Numbered from the stretch's first letter, positions 8,797 through 56,302 are shown. The stretch: 64,000 bases of DNA from a virus (IMGVR_UViG_2974588491_000001:314380-378379); one strand, 5' to 3'. Notes: a model not told the origin generated them from the sequence alone. Translations and numbers: made by a program.

Positions 8797-8914
8797 ATAT
8801 CACTCCCTAGTTATTATAAAGTATTTATTTTATATGACCTGTTTTTCTTGACATTTTCACCCCCTTCTAGTACTATAAAAACCAAAGAAAACATGTATTA
8901 ACGACAGATTTTGC

Positions 8915-8943
8915 TTGACAAGACGGCATTTTTTGTTTATAAT
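8915..8943 (+). promoter_or_regulatory. sigma70-type promoter (TTGACA-17-TATAAT)
   Basis: consensus hexamers with 17-bp spacer. Confidence 0.6.
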
Positions 8944-8970
8944 ATATGGACATTAATTGAGGTAACATTT

Positions 8971-9546
8971 ATGACACGTTTGATTATTCGTGAAAACAAA
9001 ATGAAGATTCGTTTGCACCAGGATGAAGCAGAATCTTTCATGGCAAAGGCAGCAGCAAAAGCTGACAAGTACAATAAACTTGCACCAGCAGGAAAGTCGC
9101 CATACGGCTTTAACCACGCACATTCACACTTAGTTGGAATGGCAGCAGAACATGCTTCGTGGATTCTGTTCAATGAGGTTGAGGCTCTGGCGGGTATTAA
9201 CCTAAACATCGATCCTGCGTTTCAGGATGACCGCCGTGAAGGTGAATGCGACATTTACGTAGCAGGTAAACGCATTGAAGTAAAGGGTATTAAGTACGGT
9301 TCTTGGTTACGTTTCGGTCCATGTATCAGTGCACGTCAGTTACCTAAAATTCAAAAGAAAGCTGACATTGTTCTTTGGGCGTTGTATAATGAACGTTGTC
9401 AGGAATTCACTTTCGAGGGTTTCAACTACGTTGATGAGATTGCAACCTTAGAAACTGTTATGACAGGTGCAGAAGGTCGTCCACTGATAGAAAACTATCC
9501 AGTACTACCTATCATCAAACCAATGCAATCGCTTAGTTTACATTAA
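8971..9546 (+). CDS. hypothetical protein, weak PD-(D/E)xK nuclease-like motif (D..EVK)
   Basis: GAGG RBS then ATG in frame with ORF 8911..9546. Confidence 0.55.
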   Translation: MTRLIIRENKMKIRLHQDEAESFMAKAAAKADKYNKLAPAGKSPYGFNHAHSHLVGMAAEHASWILFNEVEALAGINLNIDPAFQDDRREGECDIYVAGKRIEVKGIKYGSWLRFGPCISARQLPKIQKKADIVLWALYNERCQEFTFEGFNYVDEIATLETVMTGAEGRPLIENYPVLPIIKPMQSLSLH

Positions 9547-9557
9547 GAGGTCTTAAA

Positions 9558-9863
9558 ATGAAAGTGTTCGGTATTTTGTTTCTCGCGGTAGTAGCGTATA
9601 TTGCTTTTATTCGTTTCGCAGATGCAAGTACTTTACCAACAAACAAATATGCTTTTTGTTCAGGTTACGCAAGTAAAATGCACGAAGTATATCGTTTGAA
9701 ACATTACCAAAAAATGCAAGAATTTTTCGAAGCACTCATTGGTAACAAAACAGATGAATTTACATCAGAGTACTATCAGTCAGGTTCAGAAGTAGTTAAA
9801 ACTGGTCTTTCCATTAAACTGAACGTCAATGATAAGTGCGAGGTGCTTTTCCATAAAGGGTAA
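9558..9863 (+). CDS. small protein with N-terminal signal or TM segment
   Basis: ORF with GAGG RBS. Confidence 0.5.
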   Translation: MKVFGILFLAVVAYIAFIRFADASTLPTNKYAFCSGYASKMHEVYRLKHYQKMQEFFEALIGNKTDEFTSEYYQSGSEVVKTGLSIKLNVNDKCEVLFHKG

Positions 9864-9866
9864 CAC

Positions 9867-10349
9867 ATGACAGAAGGTATTATATTTTTCTTTGCGTTTC
9901 AGGTTTTATTTGCAATTGCCAGTGGTGGCCTTGCACCTCGAATCATGTACGCATTGACAGTAAGTAATGGGTTCTGGAACTTCTTACAGAACTATGCTTT
10001 ATCTTATCAGGTATCATACGATCAGATACATAGTACTGAGAAGTTTCTACCTGAAGTTAATTCTAAGTTAGAGAAACTTTTAACTTTAGCATTAATTAAT
10101 GAAGCAGGTGTCGGTATAAGTACTGACTATCGCCGTGATAATGGTATAATACTTCGCATTGAAAAACCACATACGTTCACTGGTTCTGGATATGGCAATA
10201 CCGTCCATTTTTATATGGACAATGGTATGATTGATGAAGAAAAATATGCACTATCACCAACTGTTTTTATTCTTGCACAAAAAGTGTACAAGCGTGTACT
10301 TGCCGCTAAAGAGCAGGAAAAAATTGAAAAGAAACGAAGTAAAATCTAA
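9867..10349 (+). CDS. hypothetical protein
   Basis: 160-aa ORF. Confidence 0.55.
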   Translation: MTEGIIFFFAFQVLFAIASGGLAPRIMYALTVSNGFWNFLQNYALSYQVSYDQIHSTEKFLPEVNSKLEKLLTLALINEAGVGISTDYRRDNGIILRIEKPHTFTGSGYGNTVHFYMDNGMIDEEKYALSPTVFILAQKVYKRVLAAKEQEKIEKKRSKI

Positions 10350-10408
10350 TTGACTTCAGTTTTAAATTAAGTATAATATTTTAAAATCAAATTGTGCGAG
10401 GATTTAAT

Positions 10409-10930
10409 ATGTCATCTGTACTAGCAACTAAAATCACCAAAGGTATGATCAATCGTGCTGGTTATATTCCGATTGAAACAACGATGGATAATGGTGGTTT
10501 TCTCAGCATCATGGATGATGACTTTATGTATTATACTTTCAAAGATTGTTTGAAGGTTGACCGTACCGATTTCCACAAATGGGTATGTTATTGGGATTCT
10601 TACCCATTTGCAATTGTCTGTGATGTTAAAGCTGACAAACTCGCAAACGGATATACCAAAGTTGCCATTCTCAATAAACAAATTGTTCCGGTTTCTGAAG
10701 TTGGTGAATTCCCTTCTAAACGTAATATTTGTTTTGGTTCGATGATAAAAGGCAAATTCGTAACCAACAAAGGTGTTGAGCAGTACGTTACTGACAACTT
10801 CGGCAATGTTCAGGTTAGCACACGCACCAATGTAAGTACTGGTAAAAAAGAAAAAACTGTACTTTCAAATGATGAAATCAAAAATCTAAAAGAAGAAATG
10901 CAACGCAATTGGGGTTGTACTCTAAAATAA
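10409..10930 (+). CDS. hypothetical protein
   Basis: GAGGA RBS then ATG in frame with ORF 10394..10930. Confidence 0.55.
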   Translation: MSSVLATKITKGMINRAGYIPIETTMDNGGFLSIMDDDFMYYTFKDCLKVDRTDFHKWVCYWDSYPFAIVCDVKADKLANGYTKVAILNKQIVPVSEVGEFPSKRNICFGSMIKGKFVTNKGVEQYVTDNFGNVQVSTRTNVSTGKKEKTVLSNDEIKNLKEEMQRNWGCTLK

Positions 10931-45451: not shown

Positions 45452-45661
45452 AATAATAATATACCACTGCTGGAAAGTACTGTCAAGGAAAAAAACAGGG
45501 GAACTTTCATGTTCCCCCTAAATGCGACAAAGGCATATATCGGACTTTGTGCGAGCTTCGTTGATCGCATGAGTACTATATCACAACGGCCAGGCGAGTG
45601 CAACTATTTGATCTGTGATAAAAATATACTTTCAAACGTGAAAAGTACTTGCAAAGAATGA
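45449..45661 (+). CDS. hypothetical protein starting at the ATG built into the IR element
   Basis: ATG in frame with ORF 45398..45661. Confidence 0.35.
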   Translation: MNNNIPLLESTVKEKNRGTFMFPLNATKAYIGLCASFVDRMSTISQRPGECNYLICDKNILSNVKSTCKE

Positions 45662-49991: not shown

Positions 49992-50002
49992 GTATTCATT
50001 GA

Positions 50003-50488: not shown

Positions 50489-50517
50489 TTGACAAAATGG
50501 TTAGAGTACTTTATAAT
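50489..50517 (+). promoter_or_regulatory. early promoter cassette (TTGACA-17-TATAAT)
   Basis: AAAAGTACTTTGACAAAATGGTTAGAGTACTTTATAAT. Confidence 0.6.
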
Positions 50518-51708: not shown

Positions 51709-51770
51709 TTACAAAGTACTGGTGAAATATCCAGTACTGTTTTTATGTACAGTACTATATCCATTGAATA

Positions 51771-51790: not shown

Positions 51791-51934
51791 TGTAGCATTG
51801 TTCTTGCTATGTGATAATAATATACTAGTACTTATATAATGTCAAGGAAATAATTATACTTTCAAACGTGAATTTGTCCTTGCATTTATTAATTAGTACT
51901 GTATAATACTTGTATTGAATCGGGAGAACGAACA

Positions 51935-52186
51935 ATGAACAAAGATTTAGTACTGTATTCGATTGCAATGATACTGTCAAGCATAGTAGTATACGTTGGT
52001 ATCGATGAAGCAAGATCCGGTATCTTCTGGCAAGCTACGGTCATTGCAGAAAACATCAACGATACATGGTTTAACTTTATAACTCATGGTATCAATTCGT
52101 TGTTCTTTATGGTGGTATGGATCGGCGTTGGTTCAATGATTGCATTTGTTTTTCATTTAGTGTTTGACAACGAGCAAGAGTCCTGA
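51935..52186 (+). CDS. small membrane protein
   Basis: two TM helices. Confidence 0.45.
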   Translation: MNKDLVLYSIAMILSSIVVYVGIDEARSGIFWQATVIAENINDTWFNFITHGINSLFFMVVWIGVGSMIAFVFHLVFDNEQES

Positions 52187-52217
52187 TATAGTACACGAAT
52201 TGAAACGGAGAGATACT

Positions 52218-52376
52218 ATGAGAGTTCAACCGATTGCACCAATTTTTAAGTTAGCCAGCAGTACTGTTAAAGATGAATATCCGAAACATATTGTTGACAA
52301 TCCTTGTAGTACTGTAGTATCTTTGGGTCAGAAAACTTTTGCACAGTTATATGACAAACAATGTAAAATCAAATGA
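52218..52376 (+). CDS. small protein (52 aa)
   Basis: GGAGAGA RBS. Confidence 0.4.
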   Translation: MRVQPIAPIFKLASSTVKDEYPKHIVDNPCSTVVSLGQKTFAQLYDKQCKIK

Positions 52377-52384
52377 GGTTTTAA

Positions 52385-53260
52385 ATGGGTAAGTATATTT
52401 CGTGGGGTATCTTTGGGGTTATCGCCCTTGCAGTAATGGCAGCGGTATTTGGTGCATCATTCACAGTAAAAGAAACTGAGCGTACTGTACTGTTGCGTAA
52501 TGGTAAGTTCGTGGAAGTAGCACAGCCGGGTTTTCACCTTAAAATGCCTTTCATTACTGACACAAAAGCAATTCAGGTAACAGGCGAATCCCGCCGTTGG
52601 GAAAAGCTACAAGCATATTCACGCGATCAACAACCTGCGGATATGGCTGTATCTGTATCTTTCAACGTACAGCCTGGACAAGTCGAACAGTTATATAAAA
52701 AGTATAACAGCATTGACGCGATGATTTCACGTGTAATTGATCGCCAGGTGCCGCAAGCACTGGAAAACGTTTTCGGCAAGTACACAGCAATTTCAGCAGT
52801 ACAAGATCGTACTAAGCTGGTGGCTGATGTTAATAAAGCCGTTAAAGAAGCAATGGCTGATGAACCGGTAACAGTATCGAGCGTACAGATCGAAGGTCTA
52901 TCCTTCTCTGATGCATACGATAAAGCAGTTGAAGATCGTATGACTGCACAGGTTGCGGTTGAACAATCCCAGCAAGATCTGGAAAAAGCTAAGATCACTT
53001 CACAGATTGCACTGACTAACGCTAAAGCCGAAGCTGATGCAAACTTTGCGAAGTTAGACGCCGAAGCGAAAGGTATCAAAGCAAAAGGTGACGCCGAAGC
53101 ATCTGCGATTAAAGCGAAAGGTGAAGCCCTTAAACAAGCTGGTGATACTTTAGTAGCATATATTTACGCTACTACGTGGAAAGGTAATTCACCTACTACC
53201 GTAGTGCCTAATACCTCCATCACTGGCTTGAGTCTGCCAGGGCAGCAAAAGCCGCAATAA
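52385..53260 (+). CDS. SPFH/band-7 (HflK/HflC/prohibitin-like) membrane protein
   Basis: N-terminal TM anchor, SPFH core (ERTVLLRNGKF...QVPQALENVFG), C-terminal Ala/Lys coiled coil; GC-richer codon usage than neighbours. Confidence 0.75.
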   Translation: MGKYISWGIFGVIALAVMAAVFGASFTVKETERTVLLRNGKFVEVAQPGFHLKMPFITDTKAIQVTGESRRWEKLQAYSRDQQPADMAVSVSFNVQPGQVEQLYKKYNSIDAMISRVIDRQVPQALENVFGKYTAISAVQDRTKLVADVNKAVKEAMADEPVTVSSVQIEGLSFSDAYDKAVEDRMTAQVAVEQSQQDLEKAKITSQIALTNAKAEADANFAKLDAEAKGIKAKGDAEASAIKAKGEALKQAGDTLVAYIYATTWKGNSPTTVVPNTSITGLSLPGQQKPQ

Positions 53261-53275
53261 GTACTGAATACTACA

Positions 53276-53302
53276 AAAGCCTAGCAATGTCTAGGCTTTT
53301 TT
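53276..53302 (+). terminator. rho-independent terminator
   Basis: aagcctagcaatgtctaggctt followed by a T-run. Confidence 0.65.
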
Positions 53303-53399
53303 ATATTTCGAAAAATATACTTTCAAACGTGAAAAGTACTTGCACAAAATGATCTGATGTAGTATTATCTTTATATCGACAACGAACAAGGAGAAACAA

Positions 53400-53614: not shown

Positions 53615-53643
53615 TTGACAAAATGGTTAGAGTACTTTATAAT
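53615..53643 (+). promoter_or_regulatory. early promoter cassette (TTGACA-17-TATAAT)
   Basis: conserved cassette. Confidence 0.6.
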
Positions 53644-53675
53644 GATTACATCAACCACTAAGAAGGAATGTACAA

Positions 53676-53870
53676 ATGACTACTGAAGAATGGCGTAAAC
53701 TTTCTCTGCAAACATCAATAACTGAGAAAGAAAAACAGCAGAAGACTATGTTTAATAGACGTTTGAAGTATCCCCCAAGAAGTGAATTACGTCGCTTGTG
53801 CGTTCAATATTCATGGTGGTTTCGTCACGAATTAAATGATTTTCGTGTACGTTTGGCAAAAATTCAGTAA
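53676..53870 (+). CDS. small basic protein
   Basis: 64-aa ORF. Confidence 0.45.
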   Translation: MTTEEWRKLSLQTSITEKEKQQKTMFNRRLKYPPRSELRRLCVQYSWWFRHELNDFRVRLAKIQ

Positions 53871-53943
53871 ACATTATCAAAAGTACTTTACTTAATTGAT
53901 AGAGTACTTTATAATGATTACATCAAATAATGAGGAAATTGAA

Positions 53944-54267
53944 ATGAGAAATTTATTATTAGTACTGGCGGCATTTGGTACAGGTTTAATGTGTGGGAAG
54001 TTTATCTACAAAGAGAATATCTCGTTTGACTTGTTTAGTGAAACAAAGTATACTTGTTCATACAAAGCTTACAGTGAAGAATTACTTCCAATATCAGACA
54101 GTAATACTTATACTGAAAAAGAGTTGAAGAAGTATCAAGAAGGTGATAGTATTATGGGAATGAAGATTGTTAGATTGTTTCCATTCCCTGATGCGTACAG
54201 TATGTTTGTACAATCAAATACGAATCCTGAACACAGTATTTTAATTAAGTGCGAGAAGAAAAAATGA
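53944..54267 (+). CDS. secreted or membrane-anchored small protein
   Basis: signal-like N-terminus MRNLLLVLAAFGTGLMCG. Confidence 0.5.
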   Translation: MRNLLLVLAAFGTGLMCGKFIYKENISFDLFSETKYTCSYKAYSEELLPISDSNTYTEKELKKYQEGDSIMGMKIVRLFPFPDAYSMFVQSNTNPEHSILIKCEKKK

Positions 54268-54653
54268 AAACTTACGAACAACTGAAAGGTGTAGCTGGTA
54301 AGATTGTTGACAACATTCAAAAGAACAGAATCAATGAAGCAGTATTCACTACTGTAACAGGCCGCAAAACTAAAGCTATAGAGTTGGGTACTTTGGTCGG
54401 TATGGTATCTGCGGCATGTTGTGAACGCAAGATTGATACTGCGATCTTGGAATTGTACTTGCGTAATGTTCATGGGTTTGAATATCGCGGTGTCCGTAAC
54501 ATGAGCAATGCAATGTTGGACGCATACGCAATTAAAGTACTTTCACATTGTGGTGATAAAGTTTTACGGTCTGGACACTTCAAAAAGATTGAAGAACTCG
54601 CCGCACAAAATACACCAGTAGATGAAGCAGCAAAAATCATCTTAGCAATGTAA
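54264..54653 (+). CDS. hypothetical protein
   Basis: ATGA coupling. Confidence 0.55.
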   Translation: MKTYEQLKGVAGKIVDNIQKNRINEAVFTTVTGRKTKAIELGTLVGMVSAACCERKIDTAILELYLRNVHGFEYRGVRNMSNAMLDAYAIKVLSHCGDKVLRSGHFKKIEELAAQNTPVDEAAKIILAM

Positions 54654-54670
54654 TTATTATCAAAAGTACT

Positions 54671-54699
54671 TTGACAAATAAGTTAGAGTACTTTATAAT
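54671..54699 (+). promoter_or_regulatory. early promoter cassette (TTGACA-17-TATAAT)
   Basis: conserved cassette. Confidence 0.6.
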
Positions 54700-55484: not shown

Positions 55485-55727
55485 ATGAAAAAGATGGTAA
55501 TTGATAATACACAATTACGCATACACTTTAAAGCAAGTACTAAAGTACTGGACAAAGCATTAAGGGTTGTGCGAGAATATACAAAAGGTGAAGTTAGACC
55601 GAGGCGATTAGGTTGTGGATTGTTTGAAGTACTGGACGTTTCGCATAATGAGCGAATCGTAATTCAAAACAGTAAACTTAACTTAATGACTCATGAACAA
55701 TATAATAAGTTCGTTGAACGCCGTTGA
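55485..55727 (+). CDS. small hypothetical protein
   Basis: GAGG RBS then ATG in frame with ORF 55452..55727. Confidence 0.45.
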   Translation: MKKMVIDNTQLRIHFKASTKVLDKALRVVREYTKGEVRPRRLGCGLFEVLDVSHNERIVIQNSKLNLMTHEQYNKFVERR

Positions 55728-55739
55728 CATAATCCCCTA

Positions 55740-55783
55740 AATATGATTATAATAAATTTATAGTCATTAGGGGATTTTTTATT
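55740..55783 (+). terminator. intrinsic terminator (long-loop hairpin aatcccctaa...ttaggggatt followed by a T-run)
   Basis: 10-bp stem. Confidence 0.5.
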
Positions 55784-56302
55784 ATGCCAGGAACATTCCG
55801 CAGTAAAAATAGTGCTACCCTAGCAGGTCACTCTGATAAATGGAGTAACTCTAATCGTAGTGCGTCAAGTCATGATGCTGGTCAAGGTAGTAGAGGAAGC
55901 CGAAACCAGGGAACAGGTATTCAAGGGAAACTAAACACTATGCCATCACAAGGCGTAGACACTTCCAAAATGAAACCAGAAGAAAAGTTAAAGTACTTTA
56001 AATCGTTGGGGTTAATGCCTGGTGCAGAACCTACACCAGAACCAGAAGTACAACCTGAACCAAAACCAGAACGTAACAAAGTACAAGCATTAACGCAAGA
56101 CCTACAGAAAGTATTTGCTAACACTCCAAACTATCTGCATAGTATTGTACAGCAGCTTAAAGAAGTGCCACCAGCACAATTTAAAAAAGCTGTATTCGCG
56201 GCGTATCGTGCAATGCAAGAAGCTACAGCACAAGCAAACGTAGATCCTAAAGCAGTACTTAAACATATAGAAGATGCAATTAACCAAAGTATCTACGATT
56301 AA
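55784..56302 (+). CDS. Pro/Glu-rich low-complexity protein
   Basis: 172-aa ORF. Confidence 0.5.
   Translation: MPGTFRSKNSATLAGHSDKWSNSNRSASSHDAGQGSRGSRNQGTGIQGKLNTMPSQGVDTSKMKPEEKLKYFKSLGLMPGAEPTPEPEVQPEPKPERNKVQALTQDLQKVFANTPNYLHSIVQQLKEVPPAQFKKAVFAAYRAMQEATAQANVDPKAVLKHIEDAINQSIYD

Follow-up and report, generated by a model that had tools for sequence, protein, structure and literature searches.

The window, that is, the whole 64,000-nucleotide stretch of viral DNA that was analysed, carries on its plus strand an open reading frame at positions 52385-53260 encoding a protein of 291 aa, exactly where the preliminary description of the locus had placed it. Between positions 51900 and 53700 the sequence matches Pectobacterium phage vB_PcaM_CBB (KU574722, 378,379 bp) at 99.9% in a megablast search. 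The table published by the authors of the CBB genome puts CBB_582 at 366764-367639, so the window corresponds to positions 314380-378379 of that record. CBB_582 is the copy of CBB_29 located in the right-hand terminal repeat (22,456 bp), and the name CBB_29 is used below for the gene and its product. CBB has a single type of SPFH gene, the two places found by tblastn being the two terminal-repeat copies. The features of the locus, in window positions, are the following:

51715..51738, both strands: terminator-like palindromic hairpin with an 8-bp stem after CBB_26, the upstream boundary of the module.
51855..51907, plus strand: promoter-like TTGCAT-16 nt-TG-TATAAT ahead of CBB_27, read from the sequence and preceded by the conserved 18-mer TATACTTTCAAACGTGAA.
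51935..52186, plus strand: CBB_27, 83 aa with two hydrophobic helices (open reading frame; two TM helices in the authors' TMHMM run), first gene of a conserved three-gene module.
52164..52192, plus strand: predicted sigma70-type promoter TTGACA-17 nt-TATAGT with an extended -10 TG (promoter scan, 11/12 matches).
52218..52376, plus strand: CBB_28, 52 aa without a TM helix, with the family pattern M[KR]V[QE]PI..SSTVV.L..YDK.GK[IL]K.
52375..52378, plus strand: GAGG ribosome-binding site of CBB_29, overlapping the TGA stop codon of CBB_28, 6 nt before the ATG.
52385..53260, plus strand: CBB_29 (CBB_582), SPFH protein of 291 aa, prohibitin family (open reading frame call, Pfam, PHROG, AF2, Foldseek).
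52388..52453, plus strand: N-terminal membrane-anchor helix of CBB_29, residues 2-23, without cysteine (AF2, hydrophobicity).
52457..52906, plus strand: alpha/beta SPFH core, residues 25-174 (Pfam, AF2, Foldseek).
52910..53140, plus strand: long Ala/Lys/Glu-rich helix, residues 176-252 (AF2, pLDDT 85-94 over most of its length).
53141..53257, plus strand: low-confidence tail with a W265-x-G267 ... P275 motif, residues 253-291 (invariant columns; AF2 pLDDT <50).
53275..53300, plus strand: intrinsic terminator with a 10-bp stem, AAAAGCCTAG/CTAGGCTTTT, and then a T-run, 15 nt past the CBB_29 stop codon.

The 18-mer TATACTTTCAAACGTGAA occurs in three exact copies in the window against 0.17 expected, and the hexamers that follow it can be regarded as a putative promoter of CBB_27, with a -35 element that falls under the promoter-scan threshold. 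Homologues of CBB_27 occupy the same position in GAP32 (GAP32_023, 60%) and in Serratia phage BF (gp020, 35-42% over part of the protein). The sigma70-type promoter at 52164..52192 falls within the last codons of CBB_27 and is predicted to drive CBB_28 and CBB_29. The overlap of the CBB_29 ribosome-binding site with the CBB_28 stop codon suggests translational coupling of these two genes. Members of the CBB_28 family, among them BF gp021 (65%), GAP32_024, and an open reading frame of a metagenomic phage, always lie 8-9 nt upstream of the SPFH gene; with an HMM built on the family, the reading frame directly upstream of the SPFH gene was recovered in all eight jumbo-phage viral contigs that include upstream sequence, whereas there was no match in about 70 smaller phage contigs with more distant SPFH genes. 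The terminator downstream of CBB_29 has an annotated counterpart at the syntenic place in GAP32.

The CBB authors considered that the terminal repeat possibly continues the early region. In line with the early placement proposed for the gene from the outset, four perfect (12/12) sigma70 promoters are present in the region around CBB_29, and the proposed late motif ATAAATA has no copy between positions 50000 and 56500; a late promoter that could be the cause of virion incorporation was likewise not found there. A ParE-like gene is located among the small early-type genes around CBB_29, and another gene of the region, CBB_38, bears a virion-protein annotation in three phages. None of the eight neighbouring open reading frames, CBB_27 and CBB_28 included, matches NfeD or any other Pfam family (E<=0.1), nor is there an adjacent protease gene; an SPFH-NfeD operon, or an NfeD partner, was rejected for this locus. 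Neither CBB_27, CBB_28, nor CBB_29 has a match in PADLOC-DB 2.0 at E<=0.01, and a component of a defence system was rejected on this ground.

Both the gene and its assignment to the SPFH proteins had been annotated and published before this analysis. The depositors of the CBB sequence labelled CBB_29 'structural protein; PF01145 Band_7', and the supplementary table of the genome paper lists for it an HHpred match to Pyrococcus horikoshii stomatin (4.7e-28), one TM helix by TMHMM, and no LipoP signal. A paper from 2020 noted SPFH proteins in the RaK2-like phages BF, fHe-Yen9-03/04, and GAP32, and described their role as poorly understood.

The architecture initially ascribed to the protein is borne out by Pfam, hydrophobicity, structure prediction, and Foldseek: a TM anchor at the N-terminus, the SPFH core, and then a long helix. 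Sensitive profile searches find the SPFH domain readily: apart from the stomatin match that the genome authors had already obtained with HHpred, the check suggested at the outset, Pfam Band_7 covers residues 27-200 with 110.1 bits against a gathering threshold of 23.6 (E=1.7e-31). PHROG_200 covers the protein from end to end (E=1.3e-52), and the lipoprotein label attached to that family can be set aside for CBB_29, which has no cysteine and is negative by LipoP. The sole strongly hydrophobic stretch is at the N-terminus, where the top 19-residue Kyte-Doolittle value is 2.25 (residues ~8-26). A monomer model predicted by AF2 from an alignment of 56 phage and bacterial sequences has a mean pLDDT of 82.9; in it residues 176-252 form one continuous helix of 77 residues, the counterpart of the wall and cap helices (CC1/CC2) in the cages of HflK/C and PHB, and the tail is modelled as disordered. 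In profile alignments the helix region falls on HflC 196-297, and a prohibitin chain is covered along its entire length. Across the 56 sequences (284-302 aa) 42 columns are invariant, including W265 and G267 of the tail, and P275 is nearly so. In a Foldseek search of the PDB the best match of the model is human PHB1 (8rrh_A, E=2e-16, TMq 0.65), followed by PHB2, HflC, erlin, HflK, stomatin, QmcA, and flotillin; the first 37 matches are all SPFH proteins.

Within the superfamily, the term 'HflK/C-like', used for CBB_29 in the preliminary description, holds for the fold but not for membership. A profile of the CBB_29 family matches HflC (1.4e-16), a full-length prohibitin chain (1.5e-13), HflK (1.8e-13), and PHB2 (4e-13) about equally, and QmcA at 6e-9. 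The NCBIfam equivalogs are far from being reached, HflK (TIGR01933) scoring 42.9 bits against a cut-off of 159.4 and HflC (TIGR01932) 36.2 against 134.4. In blastp comparisons with E. coli, CBB_29 is 24% identical to HflK (E=2e-10), aligns with HflC in pieces and with QmcA at E=0.005, and gives no significant match to YqiK. The proteins named 'prohibitin family protein' by NCBI in Shewanella, Gallaecimonas, and strain HdN1 are 46-50% identical to it over more than 90% of the length (E ~1e-90). Neighbour-joining trees place the phage and bacterial prohibitin-family proteins together and apart from E. coli HflK, HflC, and QmcA in 100% of 300 bootstraps. The genes adjoining CBB_29 are unrelated to SPFH proteins, without a pair of the hflK-hflC type. 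Orthology with HflK, HflC, QmcA, or YqiK is thus ruled out by blastp, by the NCBIfam cut-offs, and by the trees. Judged by its sequence relationships, CBB_29 can be considered a member of the SPFH superfamily belonging to the bacterial 'prohibitin family' branch, and 'HflK/C-like' should be replaced by 'prohibitin-family'.

A further claim concerned composition: the gene was said to be GC-richer than its neighbours and foreign in codon usage. The former is correct, the GC content of CBB_29 being 0.447 compared with 0.361 in the flanks (+/-3 kb) and a mean of 0.368 for the genes of the window, but the latter is unsupported because the excess lies at codon position 1, is common to the phage orthologues, and goes along with phage-like GC3 and synonymous usage. 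At position 1 the GC content reaches 0.584 against a window mean of 0.469, and the amino acids behind it are Ala (13.7%) and Val (9.6%), together with Gly, Asp, and Glu. At position 3 it is 0.361 against a mean of 0.303 (z=0.78, rank 26/113). The synonymous codons of the 62 genes of at least 100 codons were also compared by a leave-one-out likelihood test, with a phage table set against an E. coli proxy table: CBB_29 leans towards the phage table by +0.12 per codon (z=-0.85, rank 11/62), while E. coli hflK, hflC, and the Shewanella homologue score -0.34, -0.26, and -0.16, respectively, in the same test. An offset of about +0.09 from the flanks recurs in GAP32 (0.453 vs 0.356), in Serratia phage BF (0.458 vs 0.363), and in two metagenomic phages, and the GC3 of the phage SPFH orthologues tracks the phage background, being 0.225 in one low-GC phage, compared with 0.52 in Shewanella. 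Host-like codon usage is thus ruled out by the position-specific GC analysis and the likelihood test. The GC offset is a property of the protein family that stems from its amino-acid composition, and the GC-richness of genes of this family is not to be taken as evidence of recent transfer.

Acquisition from a host, as had been proposed, fares no better when the relatives of CBB_29 are considered. A scan of one genome per species from about 186,000 bacterial and archaeal species yielded 481 relatives, none of them more than 50% identical. The top ones come from Cellvibrio, Shewanella, Dokdonella, and Pseudomonas, with a few Enterobacterales at 47-49%, and Pectobacterium is absent from the best 80 loci of this one-genome-per-species scan. 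The jumbo-phage copies form a clade of their own, with bootstrap support of 96% in one tree, 88% in another, and 74% with phage Hallingskeid included; the enterobacterial chromosomal copies constitute a separate clade (99%). Metagenomic members of the phage clade sit in phage-like arrays of small open reading frames. Plasmids carry the family as well (138 records), among them Pseudomonas megaplasmids, pCAR1, and a conjugative plasmid of Kosakonia. The homologue of Shewanella is a stand-alone chromosomal gene without a link to FtsH, that of pCAR1 is located near sppA, and that of the Kosakonia plasmid sits between traB and traV of an F-type tra operon; as functional hints, these neighbourhoods are inconsistent with one another. 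A recent bacterial donor was rejected on the scan, in which identity stays at or below 50% and Pectobacterium is missing from the best 80 loci. With no closer bacterial copy, a separate phage clade, and a stand-alone gene in Shewanella, there is no sign of a recent host donor for CBB_29.

A horizontal event of another kind can be recognised when CBB is compared with GAP32. The identity between CBB_29 and GAP32_025 is 48.6%, the lowest among the 27 genes that the two phages have in common in this region, for which the median is 79%. At the DNA level the phages are 90-100% identical up to about position 51,900 and 50-67% identical from about 52,264 to 53,240, and the identity is back to 93% exactly at the CBB_29 stop codon and the terminator. 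GAP32_025 is 76% identical to the protein of Serratia phage BF, which belongs to another genus, and both are only 49% identical to CBB_29. In the tree, CBB and GAP32 are monophyletic in 0% of the bootstraps, and GAP32, BF, fHe-Yen9, and L005 group together in 94%. The kin of the CBB allele are found in CBB-like metagenomic phages and in Xanthomonas phage XbC2 (75-94% identity), and more loosely in a low-GC phage contig (58% by tblastn, 79% bootstrap). The locus is thus a cassette exchanged among phages, the horizontal event being phage-to-phage and not host-to-phage.

The fold, family, conservation, gene organisation, conserved module, and allele exchange of CBB_29 are established by the analysis; its oligomeric state, topology, time of synthesis, and client are proposals. 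We consider it fairly likely that the protein is a scaffold of the prohibitin type, a cage or ring made early on the inner membrane of the host, where it regulates a membrane client. CBB_29 would be a single-pass protein of the inner membrane and, by homology with PHB1/2 and HflK/C, would assemble there into a ring- or cage-shaped homo-oligomer; to our knowledge all structurally solved SPFH proteins form oligomers of this kind. The SPFH domain probably faces the periplasm because the charge pattern of the N-terminus resembles that of HflC, although charge counting of this sort is suggestive of topology and not decisive. The sigma70-type promoter that the gene has within the terminal repeat would be read by host RNA polymerase, and with such a promoter the protein is probably made from the start of the infection, together with CBB_28, to which it is apparently coupled in translation, the two-TM protein CBB_27 preceding both. 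The scaffold may then corral and regulate its client, altering the turnover or organisation of membrane proteins in the infected cell.

This client may be a co-encoded membrane protein of the phage, a host protease of the FtsH type, or both. FtsH seems the most parsimonious host client, since both of the nearest characterised relatives of CBB_29, HflK/C and PHB1/2, partner with FtsH-type proteases. For PHB this is the m-AAA protease. HflK/HflC are associated with an FtsH-family protease according to the descriptions of entries 7wi3 and 9cz2. Several observations sit uneasily with a scaffold that acts through such a client. There is neither a protease nor an NfeD gene next to CBB_29, and the chromosomal homologue of Shewanella stands alone, without a link to FtsH. 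CBB_28 lacks a signal peptide and a TM helix, so that the membrane would separate it from an SPFH domain in the periplasm. In a P. aeruginosa study SPFH deletions were without phenotype. The literature on phage SPFH proteins was found to hold annotations and speculation, with no experiment and no demonstrated function for any phage SPFH/prohibitin gene, and papers from 2020 and 2026 call their role unclear.

A further objection to a purely intracellular scaffold is that it does not explain the reproducible presence of the protein in purified virions. The CBB authors detected CBB_29 in virions that were PEG-precipitated, chloroform-treated, and banded in CsCl, with eight unique peptides and 29.6% coverage. 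In an independent study of Eneladusvirus the 49%-identical SPFH protein was found in all three phages (8, 15, and 12 peptides; 23-38% coverage), with values comparable to those of the neck protein and other structural proteins, and the SPFH protein of a Vi01-like phage was also retrieved, with three peptides. CBB_29 might therefore be a genuine virion component, carried on or in the particle and acting in the next infection, for instance at the inner membrane during DNA entry or right after it; besides the peptides, the annotation of CBB_38 from the same region as a virion protein speaks for it. We nevertheless regard this as rather unlikely. The structural module of CBB (CBB_201-261) spans 70 kb and CBB_29 is far outside it, under a promoter of the sigma70 type with no late motif, and a membrane-anchored protein that probably faces the periplasm cannot enter a capsid assembled in the cytoplasm. 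In GAP32 and BF, genes in the neighbourhood are annotated as virion proteins, but GAP32_025 and BF gp022 are not. Carry-over does occur, as the mass-spectrometry lists with CBB_29 and its relatives also contain ClpP as well as proteins of nucleotide metabolism and lysis, and large detergent-resistant SPFH oligomers would be plausible sticky contaminants.

The exchange of alleles described above raises the question of a gene engaged in conflict, an early membrane protein that excludes superinfecting phages or neutralises membrane-acting defences of the host. The locus is a hot spot of allele replacement: CBB_29 has the lowest conservation among the shared genes (48.6%, with a median of 79% over all 27), the boundaries of recombination are sharp, and a CBB and GAP32 clade has 0% support. 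This would fit a role in conflict, as would the company of small early-type genes, one of them ParE-like, and the plasmid homologue between traB and traV in the tra operon. Such a role is nevertheless improbable. None of the three proteins of the module has a PADLOC match, and we know of no exclusion or anti-defence protein with an SPFH fold. The 42 invariant positions are common to chromosomal bacterial homologues, indicating a conserved core activity and not diversifying selection, and the divergent alleles may be nothing but old mosaicism. The least tenable explanation, a recently host-derived HflK/C copy with host codon usage that modulates FtsH as HflKC does, can draw on the raw GC content (0.447 against 0.36 in the flanks) and the distant likeness to HflK (24% identity, E=2e-10), but is already contradicted on both origin and membership by phage-like GC3 and synonymous codons, by a position-1 offset common to all phage orthologues, by equivalog cut-offs missed by more than 100 bits for HflK and at 36.2 against 134.4 for HflC, by the lack of any bacterial copy above 50% or of Pectobacterium among the best 80 loci, by a phage clade apart from the enterobacterial copies, and by one SPFH gene in place of an hflK-hflC pair.

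The prohibitin-type scaffold of the inner membrane is the favoured interpretation, and a more far-reaching variant of it, a doubtful speculation, would combine it with the virion data: in RaK2-like jumbo phages the cage and its small partner would be an exchangeable early cassette whose product is truly virion-borne and, as the DNA enters or shortly afterwards, works at the inner membrane of the host. If so, it could provide a platform on which the genome enters, membrane-bound assembly takes place, or rival phages are excluded. What is new here is modest, namely the conserved partner encoded by a small open reading frame, the swap of a cassette between phages, and an early-type organisation that contrasts with the detection of the protein, independently by two laboratories, in purified virions. 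These findings overturn nothing established, and they make experiments tractable.

SPFH genes are widespread in viruses, as 264 phage records match CBB_29 by tblastn, among them jumbo myoviruses, staphylococcal Kayviruses, streptococcal prophages, and haloarchaeal viruses. The SPFH proteins of the RaK2-like phages (GAP32_025, BF gp022, and those of Yersinia phages fHe-Yen9-03/04 and Erwinia phages pEa_SNUABM) are the closest in context: they are syntenic, belong to the same three-gene module, and have a terminator directly downstream, and the Eneladusvirus protein, like CBB_29, was detected by mass spectrometry of virions. The difference concerns the allele: that of CBB has 49% identity to those of GAP32 and BF, and these two share 76%.

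Among cellular proteins, the jumbo-phage copies find their place not with HflK/C but in a little-studied prohibitin family that is also carried by megaplasmids and conjugative plasmids. Its bacterial members, so named by PGAP and known from chromosomes of Shewanella, Cellvibrio, and Dokdonella and from Pseudomonas megaplasmids, pCAR1, and the Kosakonia plasmid, resemble CBB_29 in length (285-305 aa) and architecture, in sequence (46-50% identity at a coverage above 90%), in the 42 invariant columns, and in the C-terminal W-x-G, and they form one clade with it. The phage copies are set apart by a clade of their own (88% bootstrap), by phage codon usage, and by the small open reading frame and the two-TM gene upstream, which are phage-specific and absent from the bacterial loci examined. 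The bacterial family itself is without an established function.

Of the systems that have been characterised, eukaryotic PHB1/PHB2 (8rrh, 9o9z) gives the best structural match, with a similar size, an N-terminal anchor, an SPFH core, and a long helix, but the identity with CBB_29 is only about 20%. In PHB two paralogues combine into a hetero-oligomer of the mitochondrial inner membrane, whereas the phage has a single type of SPFH gene. The HflK/HflC-FtsH complex of E. coli (7vhp, 7wi3, 9cz2) has the same fold and order of domains, matches the family profile at E values of 1e-13 to 1e-16, and has an HflC with a similar N-terminus; CBB_29 differs in scoring under the equivalog thresholds, in lacking the N-terminal extension of HflK, and in having no paired second subunit. 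In QmcA-YbbJ and other SPFH-NfeD operons (8z5g) the SPFH gene is co-transcribed with a gene for a small membrane protein, an arrangement resembling that of CBB, but CBB_27 and CBB_28 have no match to NfeD and QmcA is distant from CBB_29.

A second segment in which DNA identity between phage vB_PcaM_CBB and the related RaK2-like jumbo phage GAP32 collapses lies at about 53640-54300, where it drops to 42-58% with many gaps. This stretch matches the genes CBB_32-34, for which GAP32 counterparts are absent, and so represents another mosaic replacement, adjoining the cassette that contains the SPFH gene CBB_29.

Four promoters on the + strand of the early-type region around the SPFH gene, all inside 6.5 kb, match the sigma70 consensus perfectly (12/12). 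They are listed here together with the copies of an exactly repeated 18-mer and two further genes:

45625-45642, 18-mer TATACTTTCAAACGTGAA, exact match
50489-50517, + strand, perfect sigma70 promoter
51855-51872, 18-mer TATACTTTCAAACGTGAA, exact match
53316-53333, 18-mer TATACTTTCAAACGTGAA, exact match
53615-53643, + strand, perfect sigma70 promoter
54671-54699, + strand, perfect sigma70 promoter
55485-55727, + strand, CBB_37, 80 aa, Pfam ParE_like toxin domain (PF24732)
55724-55753, + strand, perfect sigma70 promoter (TTGACA-18-TATAAT), upstream of CBB_38
55784-56302, + strand, CBB_38, 'structural protein' identified by mass spectrometry (MS)

Spurious ORFs reading through the perfect promoters have the peptide strings MRVLYNVVIE and LEYFIMI in common, and the sequence is therefore conserved beyond the two hexamers. 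The three copies of the 18-mer compare with 0.17 expected in the window. The flanks of the copies at 51855 and 53316 were read, and just downstream of each there is a promoter-like TTGCA(T/C) ... TAT(A/T)AT; these two arrangements stand ahead of CBB_27 and CBB_30, respectively. The 18-mer could serve as a site to which a regulator binds, or as an UP-like element. The heptamer ATAAATA, proposed by the authors of the CBB genome as the core of the late promoter, occurs twice on the + strand of the whole window (1-64000) vs about 24 expected, and TATAAATA once vs about 7, both expectations being based on mononucleotide frequencies only. One possible reason for this scarcity is that late-promoter sequences are avoided in an early region.

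CBB_38 is the second 'structural protein' of the early-type region identified by MS (9 peptides, 56.6% coverage). Its counterparts, GAP32_032 in GAP32 and gp027 in Serratia phage BF, are also annotated as virion structural proteins; a Pfam search with CBB_38 gave no match. CBB_37 matches PF24732 with E=2.7e-11 (43.7 bits, cut-off 24.4).

Two related loci from metagenomic phages likewise have a ParE_like gene a short way beyond the SPFH gene, at 8188-8430 in L005 and at 7036-7275 in L006. L006 is the contig whose SPFH allele is nearest to the CBB type; there the SPFH gene is followed, at a distance of about 2 kb, by a resolvase gene and a gene for an IS605 OrfB/Cas12f-like TnpB (8838-10705). 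Among plasmids, pCAR1 carries a divergently transcribed sppA, encoding signal-peptide peptidase, about 1 kb from its prohibitin-family homologue. Another homologue, of 47% identity, is encoded by pKrDSM107547 of Kosakonia radicincitans (locus L175, 3971-4837), where it is flanked by traB and traV inside an F-type conjugative transfer operon.
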